64,000 nucleotides of DNA, from assembly GCA_963836185.1 (NCBI GenBank), contig CAWIIQ010000003.1, positions 224,001 through 288,000 of the forward strand, read 5' to 3'. Shown here piece after piece: positions 11,980 to 28,771 of the stretch (position 1 is the stretch's first letter; each line of letters begins with the position of its first letter). The translations under genes and the position numbers were made by a program. The DNA is from Candidatus Krumholzibacteriia bacterium. Its GTDB lineage: Bacteria; Krumholzibacteriota; Krumholzibacteriia; Krumholzibacteriales; Krumholzibacteriaceae. The notes under the pieces were generated by a model. It made no database searches, was not told the origin of the DNA, and saw only the letters and a list, made by a program, of their open reading frames with translations.

Positions 11980-12042
11980 TCGAGGCGGGTGCTTCCATGA
12001 AGTAATTCGTGTTCTGACAAGTCCCTGAATGGAATTCATCCA

Positions 12043-12070
12043 CGGCCCCCTTCGCGGGGGCCGTTTTTTT
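12043..12070 (+). terminator. Rho-independent terminator
   Basis: cggccccc-ttcgc-gggggccg followed by T7. Confidence 0.9.
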
Positions 12071-12126: not shown

Positions 12127-12232
12127 CATTTCTTAATTGCCGCTGAAATAGTCAGTTAGGTCCATGATGCCCTGGGAATCCTTTTAGGGTGTTACCCCTG
12201 TTTTGCCCTCCAGGCCGCTTGAAACGGCCCGG

Positions 12233-12250: not shown

Positions 12251-12393
12251 CAATGGCCCGATCGTAGGAGTTTTCCGTGACCGCCGTCCAGGCGGAACAC
12301 GGATCTTGAAATCAGACCTCCATAGACGAGATGTCCGTGCATCACCGCGTGCGAACTCCATTCGGACTGGAGGAAAACAAGGAGGACAGCCAG

Positions 12394-12885
12394 ATGAGAA
12401 GGAGTCTTTCCGTAGCGATCCTTCTTCTCTTCGCAGCCGTCTCCGCAGGCGCCGCCTTTGCCCAGGGCCCCGAGCTCAAGGGTGAGATGGCAGCCGCGAA
12501 GATCGTTGTCGATGAGGAAAAGGGAGAGATCGCTCTGCCCGCCGAGCAGGTCTACCCGAACGATATGGTCGAGTATACGCTGAAGTATACGAACTCCGGC
12601 ACCGCTACGGCGGCCGGTGTCGACCTGATCGGGCCCGTTCCGGTCGGAACGGTCTACATCGAGAAAACAGCAACCGACATCCCCGGACTCAAACCCATGT
12701 ACAGCATCGACCAGGGCAAGACCTGGCATGAAGCGCCGGTAATAGTCGAAGTCGCCCGCAAGGACGGGACGGTCGAGAAGAAGAAGGCCGACCCGGAGTT
12801 GATCACTCATGTCAAGTGGTCGATGGCGGAGAACCTCGATGTCGGGGAAGAGATCATGGTCAGCTACCGCGTCCATGTGAAGTAG
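12394..12885 (+). CDS. Small secreted single, C-terminally incomplete DUF11-like domain protein
   Basis: Signal peptide (AFA-Q), PNDMVEYTLKYTN, YSIDQGKTW, ends VKW..LDVGE..VSYRVHVK. Confidence 0.8.
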   Translation: MRRSLSVAILLLFAAVSAGAAFAQGPELKGEMAAAKIVVDEEKGEIALPAEQVYPNDMVEYTLKYTNSGTATAAGVDLIGPVPVGTVYIEKTATDIPGLKPMYSIDQGKTWHEAPVIVEVARKDGTVEKKKADPELITHVKWSMAENLDVGEEIMVSYRVHVK

Positions 12886-12987: not shown

Positions 12988-15676
12988 ATGACTTTCAGAA
13001 AGTCAGCTGGGCTCCTGGTGCTCCTGGCGATAGCGCTTGTCGTATCGTCGGCTGCCAACGCCCAGACGCCTGCCGGAACATTGATTCAGAACCAGGCTTC
13101 GGCCACGTTCCAGGATCTCTCCGGCAACACTTACACGGCGACCTCTAATCAGGTCACCACGATCGTACTCCCGGTATACGGGGTATCAGTCCTTCCGGAT
13201 GGTACCGTGGCTGCCCCGGGTATGGTCGGAACCTCGATACCCGGACAGACGGTATACTACAGCTACAACCTCACCAACACGGGTAATGACCCTGAAGATT
13301 TCACGATCGTACCTATTATCGACGCGGCCACGACGATGACGCTCGGGCTGGGCGATATAGACATCTACCATGATGTCAATGGTAACGGCGTGCTCGATGG
13401 CGGCGAGCCCGTTATCTCGGCTGGCGGCGTGGCGGGCAATACCGGCCTCGTTGCCGCCGGTACGACGATTCAGCTTCTTGTCGAGTATCAGGTCCCCGCG
13501 CTGGCTGCCGCCGGCGAGGTCGCCTATGTCGGCATGACGGCTACATCGGTCACCGACATCACCCAGGTAGATACGGGAAACATCCACCAGACAGACGTAG
13601 TGAGCGATGCTTCGCTGACCGCGACGATGTCCGGCCTTCCGGCCAGCCTCGATCCCGGCGACATCGCGACCTACACGATCACCGGACAGAATGTCGGTAA
13701 CGACATCGCCAACGGCGTCACCGTAGCTTCGGTAGGCCTGACCGGCGTTCTCGTATATGACATCCTCCCGACCGATCCTTCGACCGGTAACCCGCTGGCT
13801 CTCTCCGGCGCTCCTGCCGGCGCTCCCGCGGGCGGCACGGTACTGTACCTGCCTGCCGGAAGCCCGACAGTCGGTAACCCCGAGACGTGGGCATGGTCGA
13901 CCTCCGCCGCTGCCGGCGACATAGCGGTTGCTTATGTCACCAACGGCGGCCTGACGATCGGCATGAACTACAACTTCACCTATGACGTGACCGTTCCTCT
14001 GACGATGCCTGCCGGTATCATCAACAACTTCGGCGATGTCGCCTACGTGGACAACAACGCCGGCACGGCCGATCCGACGATCGTCACGACAAACAACACG
14101 CAGATCGATGTGAACGTCCTTGCCGACGTCCTCGTCGGTCCGAACGGCGTCCCCGATGCTGGAACGCCTCCTGCGTATAACGACGATTCACAGGCTGTCG
14201 CGAACGCCTACGCGAACGAGACGGTCGACTTTATCAATACTGTAAGGAACGACGGCAACGCCGCGGACGTTATCAATATCGTCCTCGATGCCGGCGCTTC
14301 GACATTCCCTCCGGGATACGGCATCCAGTTCTTCCGTATTGACGGTGTCACTCCTCTGAGCAATACCGGCGCGGACGCGATCCCCGATGTCGGCAACATC
14401 AACCCCGGCGCGACGCAGGACTTCATCGTCCGAGTCACCATACCGGGTAACGCCGTTGCTGGCGGCCCCTACCTGGCCGTAATCAACGCCGTTTCAGAGA
14501 ATGTCCCGGCCGAGCTCAACGTCACCACCGACGAGATCACCGCGGTCAACCCCGCGTCGGTCGATATCGGCAACTATGACGGACTGGTCGGAACCGACAA
14601 CAACCCGCTTAACATCGATACCGATCCGGGCCTGTCGGTCGACTTCGCTCTCGACGTGATCAACACAGGTGGCTCGAGCGACAACTTCGATCTGTCCGCG
14701 ACCATCCCGGCCGCCTGGACAGTTACTTTCTATCTCGATGCCAACGGTAACGGCATTCTCGACAACCCCGAGCTCACCCCGATCGCGAATGTCGGGCCGG
14801 TAGCCGCGGGCGGCGAGGTCAATGTTATCGCGCGCGTCGATGTTCCCGCCGGCGAGGTTCCCGGCGTGAACGCTACGACATTCAGAGCCGCTTCGGCTCT
14901 CAACGCAGGCATCTTCGACGAGATCGCCAACACTGTGACCGTGCTCGGCGCGGCCGCCGTGACGATCACGCCCGACAGAAACGGTACCGGTACCGCTAAC
15001 GGAACGATCCGTTACCAGCATACCGTGACCAACACGGGTAACGTCGACGATACCTTCATGCTCAGCGCGCTCAGCTCGAACGCGTGGAGCTACGCCTTCT
15101 TCGATCTGGCCAACAACCCGATCCCTTCGGTCACCCTTGTTGCCGGCGCCACCCAGGACATTATCGTCCAGGTGTCGATCCCCGGAGGCGTGGCTGTTGG
15201 AACGATCGAGACCGGCACGATCACAGTTACCGGTAACGGTACAGGCGCCACCGATTCGGCTGTCGACGTCACGACGATCGTCGCCGGAAACCTCGTACTC
15301 GCGAAGTTCGTCAATCCTGTGGGCAATCAGCTTCCCGGAACGGAACTGACCTACCGCACGGACTACTCGAACGTGGGTGTGGCGGACCTGACAAGCATAG
15401 TCATCTATGACGCGATCCCTGCCTGGACCCAGTTCAGGGTCGGCTCGGAGTCCGACGGCACACTGGCTCCCGGGATCACAGCGATGACGATTGAGTTCTC
15501 CAGATGACGGCGGCGCGACGTGGGTATACGTGCCTGTCGAGCGGCGGCAGGCGGAGCCCCCGCGGGCTTCGACGCCACTCGTGACCAACGTACGGTGGAC
15601 CCTCACCGGTACGCTGGCCGGCGGCGACAGCACTGTCGACGGCGTCTCCCTCATAGTGAGGATCATCGCGGAGTAG
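12988..15676 (+). CDS. Secreted DUF11/Ig-repeat protein, putative major fimbrial subunit (frameshifts about 15500-15580)
   Basis: Signal peptide (ANA-Q), TPAGTLIQNQA, repeated xxNTGNxxD Ig domains, DxNGNG loops; C-terminus continues EFSDDGGATW...TNVRWTLTG...LIVRIIAE*. Confidence 0.85.
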
Positions 15677-15690
15677 CAGTACGCAAAAAT

Positions 15691-15777
15691 AAGGCGGGAG
15701 GGGCCGCAAGGCCCCTTACGCCTTACAGTTAAATGACGTATTCAGAGGCAGGTCCCCATGGCGGGGCCGCCTCTGAA
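15691..15777 (+). terminator. Two tandem hairpins after the putative major subunit gene
   Basis: aaggcg..aggggcc-gcaa-ggcccct..cgcctt and ttcagaggc...gcctctgaa; no U tract. Confidence 0.6.
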
Positions 15778-15891
15778 TCAGTAAAAGGGGAAAAGGCGGA
15801 AAGACGGAAGGCACAAACGCAGCAACTGCAATAAACAGAGAGAGTTATGAAGTAAGGCACATACAGGAAAGTTAACCGGCGAGGCGGCGCC

Positions 15892-18800
15892 GTGAAGAGA
15901 AGGAATTACATCACTGATTTTTCCACCGGGTCCACCGGCAGGGGGATACTCCTGTGCGCGCTGGTCCTGGCCGCCATTTTTGCGCTTTCCTCGCCCGCAT
16001 TCTCCCAGATCCCCCCGGCCGGCACGGTAATATCGAGCCGGTCGTCCGCATCGTACGTCGACAACGGCAATCAGCTCACGATCCTCTCCAACGAAACAGC
16101 GTTCAGCGTTCTGCCGATGTTCGGGCCCCTTCTGACGCCTGACGGCACTTCCGCCGCGCCTGCCGCCACACGGACGGCGTTCAGCGGGGAGACGGTCTAC
16201 TACCCGTTCACACTGACCAACACGGGAAACGCCGACGATACGTTCGGATTGGCAACGGTCCTGGCGGCGCCATCCGATTTCGTTCCCTCGGCCACGGCGG
16301 TCTATCTCGATGGAAACGGTGACGGAGACGTCGACCCCGGCGAACAGGAGATCACAGAGGCCGGACCGCTCGCTTTCGGGGAGACGGTGCAGCTCGTCAT
16401 GTCCGCCACCCTTCCTTCCGGCCTGACCGGGGGAGAGATCGCGCACATGGATCTCGAGGCGAGATCGCTCGGCGACACATCGCAGGTCGATCGCGGGAAT
16501 GTCGTACGCGTCACGGCACGCGACGAGGCGAGAGTGGAACTTGCGCTCGAATCGGATGTCTCATCCGTCATGCCCGGCGGATTTGTGACATACACGATGC
16601 GGTACGTAAACACCGGTGAACGGACCGCGACCGGTGTCTCGATCACCAGCATGATCGACACCCTTGGATTTATCGATGGAACAGAATACCTGGCAGGAAG
16701 CGCGTCCGCCGTGCCCGCCGGACTGATCGAATATTTTGACGGCGAGACGTCGGCCTGGATCGATGTCGCCCCGCCGGAGAACAGGGTAAAGGGCGCCCGC
16801 CTGCGCCTCGATACCCTCGCCCCCGGAGAGGCGGGATCCTTCTCACTGACCGTCCGCGTCGACGACGATCATGCCCGCGGCAATATCGTGAACACGGCCA
16901 CGGCCGGATTCACGGGAGGCGACGGGTTGCCCTACCAGCTTCTTTCCAACGAAGTGACGGTCCTCGTCGGCATGATAAGCGAGGTCTGGCTTGGACCGCT
17001 CGGGGATCCGCTCGCGACGCCCGGGTCGGATGACGACAGGGTCGTGATCTCACTCGGCGCCGCGGATTCGGTCTGCGTCTTCAGGCATGAGATCCTCAAC
17101 GCCGGTAATTTCGCCGACACCTTCAGCCTCGTGCTTTCCGACTCGGTGATGATCCCGTCCGGCTGGCAGGTCGAGTTCCTCGGTCCCGGCGACGTGGTCC
17201 TTCCATCCCTTTCGGCGTGGTCCGCGAGGCTCGGTCCGATCGAGATCGGAGGAACCAGGGAAGTCGCGGTAAGGATATCGGCCAGCGCCGAGATACTCCG
17301 CAGCTTCACGGGCCGGGAATTCGCTTTCGATGTCGATGCGAGATCGCTTGTCGACGATGCGGCGCGTGACGAGGTGCGGAACGTGCTCGTCAAGGGGGAC
17401 ATGCCTCTGCTGTCGGTCAAGCAGTCGATCCGCGAGCCGAACGCGATGATCGGCGACGTCGTCAGTTTCATCATCACTGTCGAGAATATGACCGAAGAGA
17501 CGGTCATCGACAGTGTCAAGCTCGTCGAGAACTTCCCCTCAGGGCTGAAATTCTCCAAGGGGTACGAGCAGCCCGTCATCGAGAACAACAAGCTGATATT
17601 CGATCTCGGGCAGCTTCTGCCTGGAGCGAAGAGAGACATCGTCATCAGGGCGACAGTCGCGGCGGGGCAGGAGAAAGACGAGCTCGTAACGACCGCCTAC
17701 GTCTACGGCTCGACGCAGTACGGCGAGGCCGCTGAAGACGGTCCTGCCTACGCGTCCGTCAGGCTCTACGAGGGAGAGTTCACCAGGCGCGGGATCGTGA
17801 TGGGAAGCGTCTTCATCGACCGTGACGGAGACGGGATTCGCGGTCGGGAAGAAGAGGGTGTCCGCGGGGCGGCCGTCTTCTACGAGAAGGGCACATACGC
17901 AGTAACTGACTCGAGCGGGCTCTGGTCGATACCGGGCGTCGAGGAGGGAAGGCACGTCTTCCGTGTCGATCCCAAGTCGCTGCCCGATTCGCTTGTGCCC
18001 GGTCCGGCTGGACATTTCGGAATGGGTATCGCGGGGCAGTATCTGATCGATCTCGCCCCGTCGGGCAACCGCCGTGTTGATTTCCCTCTGCAGGTGACCG
18101 AGGTCGCTTCGGACGGGGACGCTTTCGCCGCCATTGAAAGCGACAGCGCGGCGGTTACCCGACAGGGCTCCGTCGGTACCGAGACCGCTGCGGCATCAAC
18201 ATCACCGGAGAGCAACGGCGCGAGCGATGACGCGGTGTCCGGGCCGGCGGGGCCGGAGAGTTCAGCCGATACGTCAGGTACGTATGATGCCCTTAACCTT
18301 CCGGGAACACTCTTCGCCGCGGGAAGCTCCGTGATGGAGGAGATCCCGCTGCGCGAGGTGGCGGCCCTGAGTCTCTGGGTGCGCGAGCATCCCGGCTGGA
18401 AGATTGAGATCGCGGGACACTCGGACAGCACGCCGATCAGGACGGCGGATTATCCGTCCAACTTCGAGCTTTCACTCGCCAGGGCGCGGAGCGTATACCA
18501 GCTCCTGCGGATGAACGGGATCCCTGAGGGCGTGATGGACTACACCGGATACGGCGCGAGGTTCCCCATCGCGAGCAACGACACGGCCGATGGAAGGGCG
18601 AAGAACAGGCGAGTCGAGATACGCGCCCTGCCGCCTGAGGGTTACGCGGGAGTCGATCCCGACATTCCTGCCGCGCTCGCGATGCCCGACACGACGGCGC
18701 CGAAGGAGTTCCAGCTCGCAGACGACGCAGGCCTCTGCGCCGAGATCGTCAAGCCGGCCGAGGGAACGATCTTCACTGAGAGGGACGGGATCGACATCGA

Positions 18801-21730
18801 AGTCGTCGCTCCTCTCGTCTCTACGGTGGAGCTCTACGTTAACAATATCCCTGTCGGCAGGGAGAAGATCGGGCAGAAGCAGATCGACATCGGCGAAGGC
18901 ACGCTCGGATTCATATTCTACGGTGTCAAGATCTCTCCGGGACTGAACAATATCCTCGTCGTCTGCCGATCACAGGGTGAGAAGAATGTCTGCGTCCGCC
19001 ACGTATATCTCGCCGGCAAACCCTCCCTGGTCGTTGCCGAGCACAGGGATGTAGAGGTGCCGGCGGACGGCAGATCGAAACCCGGGCTCGTGTTCCTCGT
19101 CAGCGACGAGCACGGCCTGCCCGCCAGGGACGGACTGTTCCTCACCGTGTCGGGCCCCGGCGACCTGATCGACAAGCTCGACGTCAATCCTCAGGTAAGG
19201 GGCGTACAGGTAGCCACGAAAGACGGCCGCGTCTCGGTCGATCTGCCGCCCTCCGATTATTCGCGCAGGGAGAAGATAGCCGTTACGCTTGAGGATCTCA
19301 CCGCCGAGAGCCGCCTCGAGTATGTCTCGCCGATGCGCGACTGGTTCCTCTTCGGATTCGGCGAGGGGGACGTCGGATACAGCAGCCTGACGGGGACCGG
19401 TTCTACACACAGGACATACGAGCGGTATCCCGACGGTTTCTATGCCGAGGGCAAGCTCGCCTTTTACGGCCAGGGCGAAGTAAGCACGGGCCATCTCCTG
19501 ACGATGGCGATCGATACGAGGCCGATAGTCGAGGATAAGCTCCTTGACCGGATCGAACCGGAAAAATACTACCCGATATACGGCGACGCCAGTGAACTGA
19601 GATTCAACTCGTACTCGAAATATGGTACCTACGCGAGACTCGAGCACCGCAGCTACAACGCGATGATCGGGGACTACAAGACAGAGTTCGGCACGATGGA
19701 GTTCACCAGATACGACAGGACCTTCTCCGGATTCAGGGGATGGGGGCGTCGCGGCCGGTTCGATGTCGCCGGGTTCATGTCTTACAGCGACCAGATCACC
19801 GTCCAGGACGAACTGCGGGCGAACGGGACTAGCGGATTCTACTTCCTCCACAGGTATCCGCTTCTCGAGAACAGCGAGAAGATCAGGATAGAGGTCCGTG
19901 ACAGGTACCAGCCGGAGAAGATCGTCCGCGTCGACTATTACAGCATCAACAAGGATTACGACATCAATTACCTGGACGGCTCGATACTGTTCAAAAAGCC
20001 GATCCTCGCCTTCGACGAGAACTTCAACCCGAGGCATATCGTCGTGACATACGAGTGCCGCTCGGCCGATGACAACAATGTCATCGCCGGTATCCGGCCG
20101 ACCATCGAACTGGCCGACTCGCTGATGATGGGAGTCACGGCGGTCATCCAGGACGAGGGCGAACACAATTACTCGCTTGTCGGCGTCGATCTTGCCGGGC
20201 ACCTGTACAAGGATCTGTTCATCGAGAGCGAATACGCGCACAGCGAGAAGTTCATCGTCGGAAGCGGAGACGCCTTCAGGTTCAAGCTTATGGGACGGCA
20301 CGACCGGATGCTTCGCTGGAGCGCCTACTACCGTGATATCGACGAGAGCTTCTTCAATCCCTCATTCTCCGGAGGAAAGACAGAGCTGGGCAGCAGGAAG
20401 ATCGGCGGCGGACCTCGACTGGAGGATCGGACGCGGATGGTCGCTGATCTCGAACGGATTCGGACACAGGTACGCACAGCGAAACGAGAAGAAAAGTTAC
20501 ATCGACGTAAAAGGAAACTATCGCTCCGGCGCGCTCGATGGATCCTTCGGCCTGGCGCACGCGACGTTCAGCGATTCGAGGGACGGCTCCTCCGCTTCAG
20601 GGCTTCTCGTCGCGGCAGGAGGGTACGGCAGCGAGAATACGAAGGCCGAACTGCAGCTCGACAAGAACGTCACCGGCGATGAAGTGCCCGATTATCCCGA
20701 CCGGATACAGGCGAAGCTGACACAGAAGATATGGAGATGGCTCAACGGTGTCCTCTCATACGAATACAGGTCGGGTAGCCGCTCCGGCTCGAGGCATCTT
20801 ACTCAGCTCGGTATCGAGTCGAGCATAACAGAGAATCTCAGCGCCTACTCACGCTACCGGATGGAAGGCGCGATGAGCGGTGAGCGCTCGCAGGCGATGA
20901 TCGGGATGAAGAACAGGTTCAGGCTCTCCCCCGGGCTGACATCGACCCTCTCGGTCGAGAAGCTCGCTACGGTAAGCGGGACTGATCTCGAAGACTTCAC
21001 GGCGTTTGTGACAGAGTGGCTCTTTACGCCGCCGGGTAAGGATTACAAGTTAAGCGGCGGGTACGAGATCAGACTCGACAGGCAGAGGACGAAGCATCTC
21101 GTAGGATTCGCGGCACTCAAACGCCTCAGCGAGACCTGGGCGGGTCTCATCAAGGTCGATGCCTGGCTGTCCGATGAAAAAGAGGGGATGAACCAGTCGA
21201 AGAGCTCGGGAAGGCTCGGCTTCTCGTACAGGCCGGCATACAAGCCACTGACTGTTCTTTCGATGATAAAGGGTGTTTATGAGAAGAACAGCCCCGCTCA
21301 TCCGTTCGGGGTAGACAAGGCCCTTACCGTGATGACCGAGGCGAACTATCACCTCAACGACAGGTGGGAGATCGAGGGCAAGGTCGTCGGCCGGTGGGTC
21401 GAGAACACCTTCAGGCTGCTTACGGTCAGCTCATCTTCGTACATGTACCAGGCCCAGCTGATCAGGATGTTCGGCAAGGCCTGGGACGTAAGCGTCGCCG
21501 GGCGCGTCGTGCAGCAGATAGAGACGGGCACCCTGAGATACGGCGGCGGGATCCAGGCCGGCAGGATGATCCGCGAGAATGTCTGGGTCGGCGCCGGGTA
21601 CGATTTCGGCGGTCACAGGGACGAAGACACCGAACTGAACGAATTCACGCAGAACGGGTTCCATATAGGCGTCAAACTGAAATTCGACGAGAAGCTGCTC
21701 GGCTATTTCAACGGCAGCTCGGGAGATTGA
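15892..21730 (+). CDS. About 1945-aa DUF11 + SdrD-B-like + OmpA + outer-membrane beta-barrel protein (frameshift about 20410)
   Basis: Signal peptide; pilin-like N-terminus; GSVFIDRDGDG..GE.GV SdrD-B motif; OmpA GHSD...NFELSLARA...NRRVEI; ORF 20177..21730 supplies amphipathic strands ending GVKLKFDE. Confidence 0.85.
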
Positions 21731-21759: not shown

Positions 21760-24660
21760 ATGATGAAGAGAAGTATCAAAAGTAAGACATTCAGAACGGC
21801 AGCACTCTTTGCCGTCCTTGTCATATCGGCAGCTGGAAGTGCCGGCTCTGGCGAGACAGTGATCGAAGGCGGGTTCGAGGGTGGATCGTTCGGTGCGGGC
21901 TGGGTGCATGGCGCGGCAAGGCTCAACGGGAATGAGAACGCCTTATGGGCCGACCATGATGTCGTTCTCGACCTTCCGTACACGGGAACCTGGTCTGCGC
22001 TGCTCGGCTACAAATACACAGCGGTCGCGAAGGACCGCTATGGATACATGTACCAGGAAGTCACGATCCCCGCGGACGCCTCCAGCGCAGTGTTCACCTT
22101 CCGTTACAGGCAGCAGGGATTCGATGGGCGCGCAAACGATCCTTTCGTGGCGGCAGTACGCGACCTGGCGGGCAACGTCCTCGCTACGATCGTCGATGTC
22201 GCCTTCGACGATCAGAGCAGCCACTACAAGGACAGCGGATGGGTCGATGTCACCTACGACATGAGCGCGTTCGCAGGCCAGACGGTACGTCTCGATTTTC
22301 GCCAGCACAACCTCCAGGACAACAGGTTCGAGACGTGGGTCTTCGTCGATGACGTCTCGTGTATATACAGGAAACATGTGGACCTTGCCGTCGACGGAAA
22401 CGGCGACGACGAATTCGGGGCCCCCGGAACAGGATCCGGGGGAATATCTGTTTCCAGCGGCGTGGCGGGTGGGACGGTTACCTACCTCATAGATATCGAG
22501 AACGAAGGTCTCGATATCGACTCCTACACAGTCTCCGCCTCACCCCCCGCCGGCTGGAGCGCCGTAATAAGATACGGCGGGGCCGACTATACCTCTCCAT
22601 GGACCACTTCGGCTGTCGCGCCGGGAACGACGATCTCGGCCGAGGTCATTTTGACTATATCAGCTGGTGCACCGGCAGGCAGCTATTCATCGATAGTCGA
22701 TGCCGTTTCGGTGTCCGATGGAACGAGATACGACAGCGTCACGCTCGGCACCACTATCACTTTAGTCCCGTTCGTGGCCGACCTCGTCATCGACGGTGAC
22801 GGACTGGGCACGATCGATCCCGCCGGAGGAGGCGGATCGTCGTCGGGAAGTGCCTATCCCGGAGCCTTTGTCGACTACGCTATCGAGCTTGTGAACGGCA
22901 GCAGCCAGCAGGACGATTTCACGATCAGCTTCGATTTCGATCCGGGAATAAGCGCAGTAATTATAGACGGAGCCCTGACCCATACGGCTTCGTTCAGTTC
23001 CGGGACGGTCGATTCCGGCGACTCGCGGACATATACGCTTCGCGTGACGGCCGATCCGACCTTTGCAGGAGGGGATTATCTCTCACACGTCTACGCCGCA
23101 TCCTCCGGCGATCCCTCCTCCGTGGACGGCGTCACGGCGACACTGACGGTCATCGCTCCCGTGCTCGACCTGGTCATCGACGGTAACGGAGACGGGATAT
23201 ACGATCCTTCCGGCAACGGCTTCGGTGGTGCGTACACCGTCGACGGCCTTCGTGGCACGACCGTTTATTTTTCGATCGCAGTGCAGAACGAGGGGGGAGT
23301 AGCGGATTCCTACACATTTACCTGGGACAGGCCTTCCGGCAACTGGTCCGCCGTGATCAACGACGGCACAACGGACCACGCTTTCCCGTGGACCTCTCCA
23401 GCCTTCGCTCCGGGTGAGGAGCGGACGTACACGCTCGCCGTCTCTATACCGAATAACGCGGCTTTCAATACCTGGGTATCGATCCTCGATGCAGTATCGG
23501 TCAGCGACGGCAGGATCGCGGAGAGTGTCTCGGCCGTCATCATGGTAAGCGACAAGATCGGGGTAGATGTCATCATCGACGGTAATGGTGACGGGGTTTA
23601 CGGTGGCCAGGGGACGGGAGCGGGCGGGTTGTCCTCCATTATGGCGGCGCCCGGCGACACGGTGACATTCGCGATAGTGGTCGAGAACGAGGGCGGAGTG
23701 GACAGCCACGACATCCAGTGGAACACTCCGGCAGGATGGTCGGTCCTTCTCGATGGGCAAGTCTCCCCGGTAGCCTCGGCGCCGGCGGGAGCCTACACCC
23801 TGCAGGTGATAGTGCCGCTGATGAGCCCGGTCGGGACCTTCGACATAATCCTCGACGCCATAAAGAGCAACAAGAACTTCTATGTCGACAGCGCGACCGG
23901 GCGGATCACCGTAACGGCCTCGCGACTCGTCGACGGTGTGATAGACGGGGCCGGCGACGACATCTTCGGCTCGGCGGGCCTCGGTGACGGCGGAACGTCC
24001 ACGCGCGGGACGGTGGCTGGAGTGGCAGTCGCGTTCATCGTCGAGATCCAGAACCAGGGGACGTTCGATGAGAGCTATACGGTAACGTGGAGCGAGCCGG
24101 CGGGCTGGACCGGGATCCTGGATGGATCGGTGCAGCCTTTCTCGACCGGTGTGATTCCCTCCGGAGGATCCGTGTCATACATCTTCGGGGCGACTGTGCC
24201 ACTGAGCGAGGTGCCTGGAGATTTTGATTATATCATCGATATAGTCTCAATCGACGATCCTCTGAACACGGAGAGCCTCACGGCACGTGTGACGGTTTAT
24301 CCTCCGCCGACGGTCGACCTGGTCAAGGCTGTCGACCTGGCCGCTGCCCAGCCGGGCGAGGTGGTCACCTATACACTTACATACTCGAACCCGAGCGCGG
24401 CGCCCATCATCGAGATCGAGATCGTCGATCCGGTACCGCCCGAGATGGAGCTCGTCCTTGACGCGTACGGCGCGGGGAGCGATATCTCCTGGACGACAGG
24501 GGCGGGCACAGTCTACCTTACGGCCGACCCTGCCGACGCAGATGAGGCCCTCTTCGACCCTGGCACGGGCGTCCTGCAGGTCATCCTCTCGCGGCAGGCA
24601 CCGTACATGCTCTCGACGGGTGAATCAGGCGTCATCGAGTTCCAGGTTAGAGTCAGGTAG
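21760..24660 (+). CDS. Secreted adhesin-like protein: N-terminal beta-sandwich, 5 Ig repeats, terminal DUF11
   Basis: Signal peptide; EGGFE..GW...WVFVDDV (CBM-like); repeats DLxxDGxGD; VDLVKAVD..PGEVVTYTLTYSN..IVDPVP..EFQVRVR*. Confidence 0.8.
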   Translation: MMKRSIKSKTFRTAALFAVLVISAAGSAGSGETVIEGGFEGGSFGAGWVHGAARLNGNENALWADHDVVLDLPYTGTWSALLGYKYTAVAKDRYGYMYQEVTIPADASSAVFTFRYRQQGFDGRANDPFVAAVRDLAGNVLATIVDVAFDDQSSHYKDSGWVDVTYDMSAFAGQTVRLDFRQHNLQDNRFETWVFVDDVSCIYRKHVDLAVDGNGDDEFGAPGTGSGGISVSSGVAGGTVTYLIDIENEGLDIDSYTVSASPPAGWSAVIRYGGADYTSPWTTSAVAPGTTISAEVILTISAGAPAGSYSSIVDAVSVSDGTRYDSVTLGTTITLVPFVADLVIDGDGLGTIDPAGGGGSSSGSAYPGAFVDYAIELVNGSSQQDDFTISFDFDPGISAVIIDGALTHTASFSSGTVDSGDSRTYTLRVTADPTFAGGDYLSHVYAASSGDPSSVDGVTATLTVIAPVLDLVIDGNGDGIYDPSGNGFGGAYTVDGLRGTTVYFSIAVQNEGGVADSYTFTWDRPSGNWSAVINDGTTDHAFPWTSPAFAPGEERTYTLAVSIPNNAAFNTWVSILDAVSVSDGRIAESVSAVIMVSDKIGVDVIIDGNGDGVYGGQGTGAGGLSSIMAAPGDTVTFAIVVENEGGVDSHDIQWNTPAGWSVLLDGQVSPVASAPAGAYTLQVIVPLMSPVGTFDIILDAIKSNKNFYVDSATGRITVTASRLVDGVIDGAGDDIFGSAGLGDGGTSTRGTVAGVAVAFIVEIQNQGTFDESYTVTWSEPAGWTGILDGSVQPFSTGVIPSGGSVSYIFGATVPLSEVPGDFDYIIDIVSIDDPLNTESLTARVTVYPPPTVDLVKAVDLAAAQPGEVVTYTLTYSNPSAAPIIEIEIVDPVPPEMELVLDAYGAGSDISWTTGAGTVYLTADPADADEALFDPGTGVLQVILSRQAPYMLSTGESGVIEFQVRVR
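22381..24300 (+). repeat. Five approximately 130-aa repeats starting D(L/V/G)xxDGxG
   Basis: Starts near 22381, 22780, 23167, 23566, 23932. Confidence 0.75.
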
Positions 24661-24819
24661 TCGGCCGCAGCCGACCGGGCTCTTCATTGCCGACACCCGT
24701 TTTCTGTGCTATAATCCCTATGTAACACCACGGCAGCTTATCCTTTTATTCGGCCCGCGCCAGTGGTCCCTCGACCCTTTACGGCCGGATTACAGTTTCT
24801 GTCATTGTCTGGAGGGGTG

Positions 24820-27800
24820 ATGATGAGACGCGCCCTCGTTCTATTTATTCTCCTGGCTATAATTCCGTCCACAGCACCGGCCCAGTCTCCTGAAATCGGG
24901 CGTATCGCGCTCTACGCCGATTCATTCAGAACATCCAGTGAAGTCGACCTGCCCGAGGCCTACACCTCGTTCGATCTCTACATCTTCTGCCAGCCGAGCG
25001 AAAACGGCATGTCATGCGCCGAGTTCGCCCTGGCCTCTACGACAGGATCGATGGTCGTTGCCGGGGGTGACTGGCACGATGGGTTGTCCGTGACGCTCGG
25101 GGATCTGATGACCGGAGTGAGTGCGTGTTTCGAGGAGTGCCAGACCGACTGGGTCTGTTTAGCCAGGGTGACGATGCTGAACTCTGATACGGACCCGGCT
25201 GTGATAGAGGTAGTGAGACATCCGGAGGCAGGTTACTACCAGTTCAGCAGCTGCCTTCCCGACCGTCCGATCGAACCGGTCTTCTTCGGGCCGGGCCTCT
25301 GTGTCAACTCTGACTGCACGCCTGATACAGATCCTCCCGTACCTGTAAGCATAGCTGTCGAGGACGATCTTCACATGACCCTGTACTTCGATGAAAAGGT
25401 ATTCGAGCCCGACGCTCTGGATCCGGGCAGCTACATCGTCTATTCGACAGAGGGCACACCGGATTCCATCCCTGTCATCTATGCGCTGCTGCGGCCCGAG
25501 GAGGACAGGGTGTGGCTGGTGCTCGGCGAGCATCTCACCGCGGACCCTTACAGGCTGGAGATAAGGGATCTCAGGGATGTCACGGGCAACCCCTCCCTGC
25601 CCGGAACCGGGATAGCGTTCGGCGGCGAGGATACTACTCCTCCCGATCTTCTGTACGCATACGCTCCGGACGATTTCAATGCGATCCTGGTCTTTACCGA
25701 AACGCTCGATCTAGTCTCGGCTGTTGATATCTCGAACTATACGACCGGTTGCGATGGTTGCCCCTCTGTCCCTCAGCCTGTCTCCGTGTCGATGAGGTCC
25801 GACGGCAGAAGTGTGTCACTGGCCCTCGACCGGCAGATGGACCAGGAGTGGATATACAACGTCACGGCCGGGGGTATCTTCGACATCTCGGGTAATGAGA
25901 TGGCTGCGCCTGTAACGGTCTTTTTCAAGGCGCCCGATACGACCCCGCCATCTATCGGCGAGGTATCGATCTCGTCGGATACCACGTTGAGGATACTCTG
26001 GAGCGAGACGCTCGATCCCGCATCGGCGGTCGATCTGGAGAACTACTCCTTTTTCAGGGACGGGCCGCCGGCCGAGCCGATGAATCTTGTATCAGCCGAA
26101 CTTTTCGGCGGCATCCATGTCAGTCTCGATTTCGAGCCCGCGATAGAGATCGATTGCGGGTATACACTGTTTGTAAGCGGGGTGACGGACAGCTCGATGA
26201 ATGTGATGCTTCCCGACACCTTATATGTAACACCTCTGGATACGATCCCTCCGGTCCTGCTCGGCGCTGAATGCATGGGGCTCCGGGACGTCGACCTGAC
26301 ATTCGACGAACCGGTCGATCCATCGGTGGCGGGAGCGACCGGATTTTTCCAGGTCTATCCGGCGGGAGATCCGGGGACTCTCCTTGATATAGACGGGATC
26401 TCTCTCTATCTCGGTGATACGGTAACCCGCCTTCATCTGATCGATGACCTCGCACACGGGATGAGTTACACGGCCCGCGTCATCAGCATCCGTGACCCGG
26501 CCGGGAACTCACTGCCCTCTCAGCAGCGCGATTTTACCTGTTACGACATATATTCCCCCGAAGTCCTCGAGATATTCCTGTCCGACCTCACGCATGTAAA
26601 TATCCGGTTCGATGAGATGGTCGATGGCGCGGCGGAACAGACGGCCAGCTATATCCTCCGTGAAGCGGCCGATTCCACTGCCGTGGTCGATCTGGCCTCT
26701 GCCGCCCTTTTCGATGGAGCGACGCGGGCAGTGCTGATAACGGCGGCGCCCCTCGGTATTGGCGAGATGTATATCCTGAAGATGAGCGGGATAGGGGACA
26801 TGATCGGGAATATGGTCGACCCGGACACTTCTTGGACCTTTATCGCTGAAGATACGGTCGATCCGGTCCTTCTCGGCCTTACCGTGACCAGCGACAGCAT
26901 CATCCATCTGGAATTCAACGAGCCCCTCGACCCGGCGGCGGCTGAGGATATCGCGAAATATGCCGTCGTGGAAACGGGCGACACATCAGTCAGGCTGCCG
27001 CTCCAGTCGGCATCGCTCGATCCGGCCGGCACTACGGCAGATCTCGAGATCGACGGGCGCGCAGCGATCGGGACGACGTACGCCGTCTGGATCGCCGGTG
27101 TGACGGATGTAGCGGGAAACGCATTCTACGGGGCCTCCGGCGACTTCCAATTCATCGACGACATCCCTCCGCGCCTGCTCTCCGTTGCCGGGGTGACGAC
27201 GAGGGATGTCATCGTCTTTTTCGATGAAGCGGTCACGGACGCCACGGCCGGTGACGAGCTCAACTACAGGCTGTATCCGACGGGCGACCCGGCATCAGAG
27301 GTCGGCATATTCCAGGCCGACAGACTCGCGGACCAGGTGACCGTCAAGCTCATGCTTTTCGAGGACCTCGCTCAGGGTACGGACTACACCCTCGATGTCG
27401 CCGATATCATGGACCTTGCCGGACATGCCATCGAGCCGGTTTCGATCGAGTTTCATTTCCTCGACCTCTTTCCGCCGGGGATCGTGGATGTGGACCTGAT
27501 CGACCCTTCGAGGCTGTCGATAGAGTTCGACGAACCTGTCGATTCGGTGACGGCAAGTGATATCAGGCAACTACGATGTATATCTGAGTTCTGATCCATC
27601 TGAGCTGATATCTGTGAATTCGATAGACTGGATGACCGGCGAGGTCCGGCTGAACCTCGCTACCGAGCCCCAGCCGAACGTTGACTACACGGTAAGGATC
27701 GATGGGGTCGAGGACCGGTTCGGCAATGCCTGCAGTGGACTCTACGGAAGCTTCAGGCGTGATGTCCTCGCGCCGTCGACAAAGATGTACCTCTTCGCCG

Positions 27801-28771
27801 ATGAATACAGGAGCACACACGATGTAGATGCCGATGTTCTTTACCAGCCTTTCAGTTATTACGTCTGGCTCGAGCCCGGCGGCAACGGAGTCTTCAGCGT
27901 CGATTACTCCCTGAGCGGGCCGGAGACGTATGTCCCGATAGGTATAGAGATGAATCCTGCCTGTGTGTCCGGGGTCCTTGGGGACCCCTGGATCGGGCAC
28001 ACCGTCGAGCTGTCGGTCTGTGAGCACGACTGGCTCTGGATCGCCCGGATCGACTGTATCTGTATCGATCCTGGAGAGCAGGAGGTAGTATGGATCGTGC
28101 CGCATCCCGGCGAGGGAGCGGTACAGGTCGCTTCATGCCTGGCAGGAAATCCGGTGGAGCAGGTGGTGGCGACATACCCGCTGCTCATAAACGCTGTTTA
28201 CATAGGCACGATGCTGGAGAGCTGGGACGTATCGCTGAGTGGCGGCGGTATCGAGCTGACCTGGTCGATCCTCCAGGCGGCGGGTTCGCCGGGGTTCGAG
28301 GTCTCACGAAGTTCCGAAGGCGCTGATATGTGGCAGAACCTCGACAGCGAGCTGATCCGCGGCGACGGCCTGAACTATTCGATGCTCGACATCGATGTCG
28401 AGTTCGGCCTGTCGTACAGGTACCGGGTCGAATGTGTCGAGGATGACGGGCGAAAGATCCTTTTCGAAACAGGTCCGGTCGCGACCCCGGCCATGCCGCT
28501 CACGCTCAGGCAGAACAATCCCAACCCGTTCAATCCTTCGACCCGCATCGAATTCCTCCTGCCGCGTCCCGGCCACGTCCGCATCGAGGTGTTCGATGTC
28601 AACGGGAGGCTGATCAGGGTCCTCGCCGACGGGCACTTAGCGAGCGGCGGGCATTCGGTCGACTGGGACGGACGGGACCGCACAGGCACGATGGTATCGT
28701 CGGGAGTATATTTCTACAGGCTGACGGCGGGGAAAGAGAGCCTGTCGCGGAAAATGGTGCTTCTGCGGTGA
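24820..28771 (+). CDS. Secreted protein with 8 Big_5/SbsA-like Ig repeats and FlgD/T9SS-type tail (frameshift about 27565)
   Basis: Signal peptide; eight DxxPP...F(D/N)E...NY...D.(A/S)GN repeats; QNNPNPFNP...KMVLLR. Confidence 0.85.

Follow-up and report, generated by a model that had tools for sequence, protein, structure and literature searches.

Gene organization at the locus

The window, by which we mean the whole analysed stretch of 64,000 nucleotides from a Candidatus Krumholzibacteriia bacterium (GenBank assembly GCA_963836185.1, contig CAWIIQ010000003.1, positions 224,001 to 288,000), contains four co-directional genes which encode a small protein, a major multi-Ig subunit, an OmpA/giant-barrel protein and a tip-like protein. 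Coordinates of these genes and of the features discussed below are presented in Table 1. One such operon was found in the source genome (92.5% complete). Searches of that genome gave no match to either the PapD (PF00345) or the usher (PF00577) family, and the Pfam scan of the small protein gave no PapD family.

Table 1. Features of the operon in the window (positions are those of the window)
Feature	Position	Strand	Remarks
AGGAGG ribosome-binding site	12380..12385	+	8 nt 5' of ATG 12394
Small acceptor-only DUF11/CLIPPER-like gene	12394..12885	+	163 aa; subject of this study
Sec-type signal peptide	12394..12462	+	ends AFA, without lipobox Cys; by-eye reading
Met32 (mature residue 9)	12487..12489	+	at isopeptide-Lys site, from complex model; Lys in 0/208 homologs
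Gly80 (mature residue 57)	12631..12633	+	catalytic-Asp site of LIGPVP, from profile alignment
Major multi-Ig subunit	12988..15676	+	has an N-terminal donor hairpin and a C-terminal acceptor; indels near 15500-15580 break the frame
Donor hairpin of major subunit (LIQNQASATF)	13063..13170	+	Asn at 13090-13092; predicted client of small protein
Major acceptor	15304..15411	+	Lys 15304-15306 to Asp 15409-15411; this Lys is the only one of the mature chain as read
Two stem-loops after major gene	15690..15779	+	no U-tail; divide small and major genes from barrel and tip genes
Outer-membrane platform candidate	15892..21730	+	Asn-less donor hairpin, Ig/DUF11 domains, OmpA domain, very large C-terminal beta-barrel
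Tip-like protein	21760..24660	+	N-terminal MAM-like domain, no donor, C-terminal acceptor with Lys and Asp

The small ORF is a real gene. An upstream start at ATG 12331 was disfavoured by the position of the AGGAGG sequence and by homolog lengths, most close homologs being 161-163 aa. The product is likely to be exported, given its apparent signal peptide, and its nearest named relatives are from Candidatus Krumholzibacteria. Terminator-like hairpins at 12042-12070 and 12165-12200, 5' of the small gene, are a probable mark of the operon start. The promoter scan gave nothing above chance level (1 vs 1.1) and no sigma-70-like promoter on the + strand. When sequencing runs were searched, no run reached half of the query words. 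Contigs of relatives from three RNA-library runs span the gene fully or partly, and these contigs neither rank the genes nor prove transcription.

Frame breaks in the major gene and in the barrel gene (near 20600-20680) are probably assembly errors. Relatives of both genes are intact, with lengths of about 894-900 aa and about 1945 aa respectively, and contigs of relatives differ from the window by single bases at 15537, 15549 and 15579. The stem-loops which follow the major gene were absent from the list of intrinsic terminators returned by a terminator scan. Directly 3' of the tip gene, at 24763-28771, lies a gene for a Big_5 repeat protein with a FlgD-like/T9SS-type C-terminal domain, which reads as two ORFs that overlap (943 and 404 aa), likely through an assembly indel.

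A structure model of the barrel protein, obtained from the relative at locus L006 (pLDDT 71), has a strand count far above that of the 24-strand usher barrel. It tied with SlpA, SprA and FimD (Z 18.1, 17.9 and 17.5; rmsd 7.7-10.5), a tie which shows a large barrel and assigns it to no family. The donor at the N terminus of the barrel protein (16006-16110 in the window) is without Asn in 21 of 32 loci (all 20 of those in L003-L026, and L032) and has it in the other 11; since the Asn is variably kept, attachment at the base of the fibre may differ between lineages, being covalent in some and releasable in the rest.

Fold and composition of the small protein

The small protein matched Pfam DUF11 (PF01345) with 24.9 bits against a cut-off of 24.6, over residues 51-94 only, and TIGR01451 with 29.9 against a cut-off of 24. 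Its structure model (pLDDT 91) is a single domain of 140 aa with a CnaA-like beta-sandwich, and this model aligned to the CLIPPER structure 9IFR over chain residues 19-109 of 123 (Z 8.6, rmsd 2.0, 90 residues aligned), with an alignment score tied with the mu-adaptin and TTHA1873 rows. The truncated fold that had been predicted from the sequence was borne out, as the alignment stops at chain residue 109 and leaves roughly the last two strands of 9IFR unmatched. The bond in 9IFR joins Lys715 and Asn806 with the aid of Asp748 (PMC12617251), and the unmatched part would hold Asn806. The available text of that paper is concerned with bonds formed within one molecule, in the stalks of single-chain adhesins, and the words "donor", "chaperone" and "operon" are absent from it. 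PDB sequence searches with the small protein gave no significant match (the best was 9IFR, E 0.066), Foldseek with its model returned nothing at E<=0.001, and the ESM Atlas returned DUF11-named clusters only, of 122-148 aa. TTHA1873 (7wrk, Z 8.7) was set aside as a fold tie only, and a literature search on it gave nothing relevant. The small protein is DUF11-derived, yet it falls outside the CLIPPER definition, having no final strands, Lys or Asp.

No donor-hairpin match was found within the small ORF. The sequence carries YSIDQGKTW, HVKW and a C-terminal YRVHVK, and the original prediction had taken these motifs to be shared with the other acceptors. They were recovered in the major subunit only (FSxDxGxTW across an indel, and NVRW); the tip has neither motif, and the major subunit ends in LIVRIIAE. 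The proposed equivalence of LIGPVP with VIYDAIP of the major subunit and IVDPVP of the tip-like protein did hold, these segments falling in the same column of the profile alignment with a probability of 99%. The description of the protein as charged and Lys-rich, unlike acidic T/G/V-rich subunits, was correct for Lys, which makes up 9.3% of the mature small protein vs 0.1% of the major subunit (one Lys in 814 aa), but the protein is still net acidic (net charge -8, pI 4.9) and its Val content (12%) equals that of the subunits.

Modelling of the small protein with the major-subunit donor hairpin

The small protein was folded together with the first 181 residues of the major subunit and gave a complex score of 0.89, compared with 0.00 for the best control; the mark applied to this score is reached by 116 of 157 solved complexes and by 2 of 215 mismatched pairs. 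Contact agreement between runs was 100% and the partner pLDDT was at least 92. The pass may reflect likeness to the solved intact domain 9IFR, because the two parts together rebuild a domain of solved type. In the model the donor hairpin sits in the gap left by the missing last two strands of the small domain, with an interface formed by donor residues 8-19 and 26-36. It is predicted that the hairpin completes the fold of the small protein, the donor Asn facing Met32, and the earlier claim that this acceptor-only protein binds the donor strand is supported as a prediction.

Three residues of the mature small protein (Met9, which is Met32, together with Tyr38 and Pro58) touch donor Asn10 in this model, the expected error for Met9-Asn10 being 0.5 A. 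Because Met9 makes this contact and Lys13 (Lys36 of the precursor) lies outside the modelled interface, we place the isopeptide-Lys site at Met32. In the profile-profile alignment a hairpin insertion prevented the Lys from being placed.

Reactive sites across the family

A total of 214 small-family domains were pooled and six partial ones dropped, which left 208 full-length homologs. At the Lys site these carry Met (110), Ile (58), Leu (19), Val (10), Ala (8) or another residue (3), and none carries Lys. The flanking inward positions 7 and 11, which cover a possible two-residue misregister in the sister-type rows, are likewise without Lys in all 208. The Asp site is occupied by Gly in 102 homologs, Asp in 85, Asn in 8 and other residues in 13. 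Asp is kept in 16 of 49 homologs at <50% identity, and a rapidly built tree of 102 rows with poor resolution shows at least nine changes of the Asp state. Both Lys and Asp were present in the acceptors of all 32 complete relatives of the major subunit, after 4 of 36 had been left out as incomplete.

Judged from this alignment, the change common to the family is loss of the nucleophile Lys and not of Asp, and Asp would appear to drift once Lys has gone. The original prediction had named the catalytic Asp as the key missing residue and had overlooked the absence of Lys at Met32. Asp loss proved not to be systematic and was rejected as the defining change; the outcome that the original prediction had named as its refutation, homologs generally keeping Asp, was in part observed. 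The conclusion that the small protein lacks covalent bonding capacity survives because the Lys site holds no Lys in any homolog. A co-variation of the residues at the two sites (M/G vs I/D) was unsupported by independent pairs (4 pairs, p 1). The family also differs from the major subunits in its A-B hairpin, which is 21-34 residues long in all 49 small-family representatives vs 8-9 residues in 31 of 32 majors.

Distribution, synteny and lysine content in relatives

A profile search of the phylum gave matches in 83 of 181 genomes, two of which (G054 and G167) matched weakly and via the larger subunits alone. In 36 of 38 genome loci the gene that immediately follows the small gene is of the major type, the remaining two loci ending at a contig edge, and the small gene adjoins a major-type gene in five plasmid loci from cyanobacteria, Deinococcota (Thermus, Deinococcus) and Alphaproteobacteria. 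Strong stem-loops occur 3' of the major gene in 31 of 31 loci and 3' of the small gene in 5 of 31 (z <= -2.5 against 12 mononucleotide shuffles per locus, with unequal windows of 100 and 150 nt, L030 left out and the loci being kin). Of 15 operons readable beyond the barrel gene, 14 encode a distinct tip protein with its acceptor at the C terminus (the window, L043, L045, L052 and L054-L063, with L044 the exception and the cut loci L041 and L042 excluded), and these 15 operons are mostly from one phylum. A search of 183 long proteins, a class for which it is weak, detected no small-type domain; the best score was 44 bits, compared with at least 92.6 bits for members of the small family, which had however helped to build the profile.

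The composition argument of the original prediction was extended to these relatives. Lys content was higher in the small protein than in the major subunit in all 31 main-type loci (median 6.5% vs 0.12%), but in a sister operon type most small proteins contain 0-3% Lys, so that Lys-richness is limited to certain lineages.

Several loci depart from the common arrangement. Many Marinimicrobia homologs (L033-L038) have an in-frame upstream extension of about 105 codons, giving ORFs of 261-301 aa (mostly 268-269), which precedes a normal signal peptide and is kept in frame and length while being poorly conserved in sequence. In the same loci the stem-loop after the major gene contains the start codon of the barrel gene (about 50 nt around the start), hinting at translational damping, and a second large gene follows that of the 2227-aa protein. 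Proteins P0061 and P0139 (about 320 aa) consist of two tandem small-type acceptor domains. The Pacificitalea plasmid locus L044:11860-22113 has three genes (small, major and barrel), the tip gene being absent from the fetched region. On Thermus brockianus pTB1 (L042:9214-15014) the operon starts 89 bases after a carotenoid gene cluster (crtI, fni) of the same orientation.

The sister type, found in the same phylum (L046-L053 and L058-L063), encodes an adaptor of about 330 aa, a small protein, a major subunit of about 355 aa, a barrel protein of about 1950 aa and a tip. Its subunits also have long A-B loops, and the Asp site of its small proteins is mostly Asn. The donor of the adaptor is without Asn in all 11 read, and Lys and Asp are both missing in four of seven tips (by-eye reading), which suggests a designed non-covalent, possibly sheddable tip junction. 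Reaction-dead acceptors can therefore be parts of a fibre, and missing catalytic residues do not on their own imply a chaperone.

Proposed function of the small protein

The small protein is a real, conserved and specialised component of an apparently undescribed pilus operon. At the level of sequence it comprises one truncated DUF11-like domain with no donor of its own, with Met and Gly at the reactive sites and with a fixed place beside the major gene. We favour, with some reserve, the reading that it probably serves as a periplasmic, non-covalent chaperone which shields the donor hairpins of a predicted split-DUF11 pilus. Since a donor and a Lys/Asp acceptor are combined in every major subunit, unshielded majors would be expected to join up in the periplasm and become irreversibly welded. 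Lacking Lys and Asp, the small protein would cover the two-strand donor hairpin at the N terminus of freshly exported subunits and hold it reversibly with no covalent lock, blocking premature polymerisation until the subunit reaches the outer-membrane barrel. There the reactive acceptor of the growing fibre would displace the small protein, in an acceptor exchange driven by bond formation, and the chaperone would then be released. In this scheme the head-to-tail covalent polymerisation, the periplasmic residence and the exchange at the barrel are what we infer.

Non-covalent shielding of the donor, as originally predicted, draws on the acceptor-only anatomy, the lack of bonding capacity and the predicted binding of the hairpin, and these points would suit a cap as well as a chaperone. 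A structural, non-covalent end cap or default tip would stay on the distal free donor hairpin, either as a payload-free alternative to the tip or as a nucleus which primes growth at the barrel. The small protein is topologically equivalent to the tip (acceptor, no donor), and the complex model, as a prediction, fits both functions equally. Reaction-dead acceptors do serve as tips in the sister-type operons, L044 has no tip gene and the sister-type small proteins have the low Lys content of fibre subunits; each of these points also counts against the chaperone. We nevertheless consider a cap unlikely. In 14 of 15 operons the small protein occurs alongside a dedicated tip, which already provides the distal donor with a partner, and with no small-type domain in any of the 183 long proteins the small protein has not been seen with an adhesin payload. 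The small protein of the window is Lys-rich where fibre subunits are purged of Lys, and the tandem domains of P0061 and P0139 would be odd for a simple cap. The small gene also lies with the major gene 5' of the conserved stem-loop while the tip gene lies 3' of it; as the stem-loop follows the major gene and rarely the small gene, the latter is grouped with the presumably abundant subunit and not with parts needed once per fibre. A point against the chaperone reading is that in the fim and pap operons, unlike here, the chaperone genes lie downstream of the major-pilin stem-loop. The chaperone reading is also favoured by the Lys excess over the major subunit in every main-type locus and by the lack of an encoded strand-donating PapD/usher system.

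It is also conceivable, but distinctly improbable, that the small protein is a dedicated partner of the barrel protein, plugging its N-terminal donor hairpin and stopping this likely terminator or anchor strand from closing the fibre early, which would set fibre length. The barrel protein does have its own donor-like N terminus, Asn-less in the window as in most loci, and the long A-B hairpin of the small family offers a possible platform-docking surface, but long A-B loops are also found in sister-type subunits, the model binds the major-subunit donor with high confidence, and the amounts of the two proteins would mismatch because the barrel gene lies 3' of the stem-loop. We give very little credence to a covalently incorporated minor subunit which bonds via another Lys (Lys36, mature 13), or to a degenerate gene with no role in assembly: 173 of 208 homologs do have Lys at mature position 13 and part of the family retains Asp, but Lys36 was rejected as a reactive residue because it is outside the interface and is shared by only 27 of 49 diverse representatives, Met9 is in contact with the donor Asn, the window protein has no Asp, and strong conservation with fixed synteny across phyla argues against decay.

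Significance and comparison with known systems

If the chaperone reading is true, it would explain how spontaneously welding subunits are exported without clogging the periplasm, by a chaperone with a polarity opposite to that of PapD/FimC. Quite possibly, though we hold this more tentatively than the chaperone function itself, the small protein represents a pilus chaperone of a new class, in which a copy of the subunits' acceptor half-domain has lost its reactivity and is displaced by irreversible isopeptide formation at a giant barrel, in a widespread, undescribed covalent pilus of diderms (Krumholzibacteriota, Marinimicrobia, cyanobacteria, Deinococcota and Alphaproteobacteria). One protein of 140 residues and one hairpin of 36 residues would provide a handle on this apparently undescribed pathway, and cultured hosts which carry the system include Thermus brockianus, Deinococcus ficus and Synechococcus NIES-970. 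If the reading is true, a new split-isopeptide ligation pair could also be had for protein engineering, with the small protein as its reversible partner of natural origin. No description of the operon or of the small protein was found in the literature covered, which consisted mainly of openly accessible text. In their accessible parts, papers on tafi (PMC11821415), CryoSeek TLP-1 (PMC11494351) and Litorilinea grappling hooks (10.1101/2025.08.19.671072), as well as PMC13297417, PMC13490349 and PMC12502724, concern other things.

The small protein resembles CLIPPER domain 9IFR in its Pfam and TIGR matches and its CnaA-like sandwich, and for both Lys and Asp of the Lys715-Asn806/Asp748 triad a counterpart position can be assigned in it, but it stands alone, without the last two strands that hold the Asn, and the residues at the two counterpart positions are Met and Gly. 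Like FimC/PapD, as presented in the accessible text of PMC13721041, it is proposed to be a periplasmic helper which binds exported Ig-like subunits and passes them to an outer-membrane barrel; in the same account PapD/FimC lend their G1 strand to the groove of the subunit, whereas the small protein is predicted to accept the hairpin of the subunit. It also has one domain and not two, is derived from the acceptor of the subunit itself, and is found in a genome with no PF00345 or PF00577 match.

The "exchange and lock" mechanism of BsaA of Clostridium perfringens, in the abstract of PMC11580942, combines donor-strand exchange with an intermolecular isopeptide bond as predicted here for the major subunit. 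BsaA belongs to the TasA family, is from a monoderm and is SipW-associated, and the abstract names no such chaperone. Unlike an exchange-and-lock subunit of the BsaA kind, the small protein has no donor strand of its own and neither Lys nor Asp at the reactive sites. ElrE of the Enterococcus WxL pilus, according to the accessible part of its report (10.64898/2026.10.17.759780), is likewise a non-PapD chaperone in a donor-strand-exchange pilus, but it is membrane-anchored, primes by donor-strand complementation and serves a sortase-anchored fibre restricted to Bacillota.

The tip subunits of the same operon type differ from the small protein in having an N-terminal payload domain. SpyDock is an engineered, non-reactive SpyCatcher, in which the catcher half binds its tag reversibly once a reactive residue has been removed. 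It is an engineered CnaB domain with a single-strand tag, whereas the pair described here would consist of a natural CnaA-like half-domain and a two-strand hairpin.
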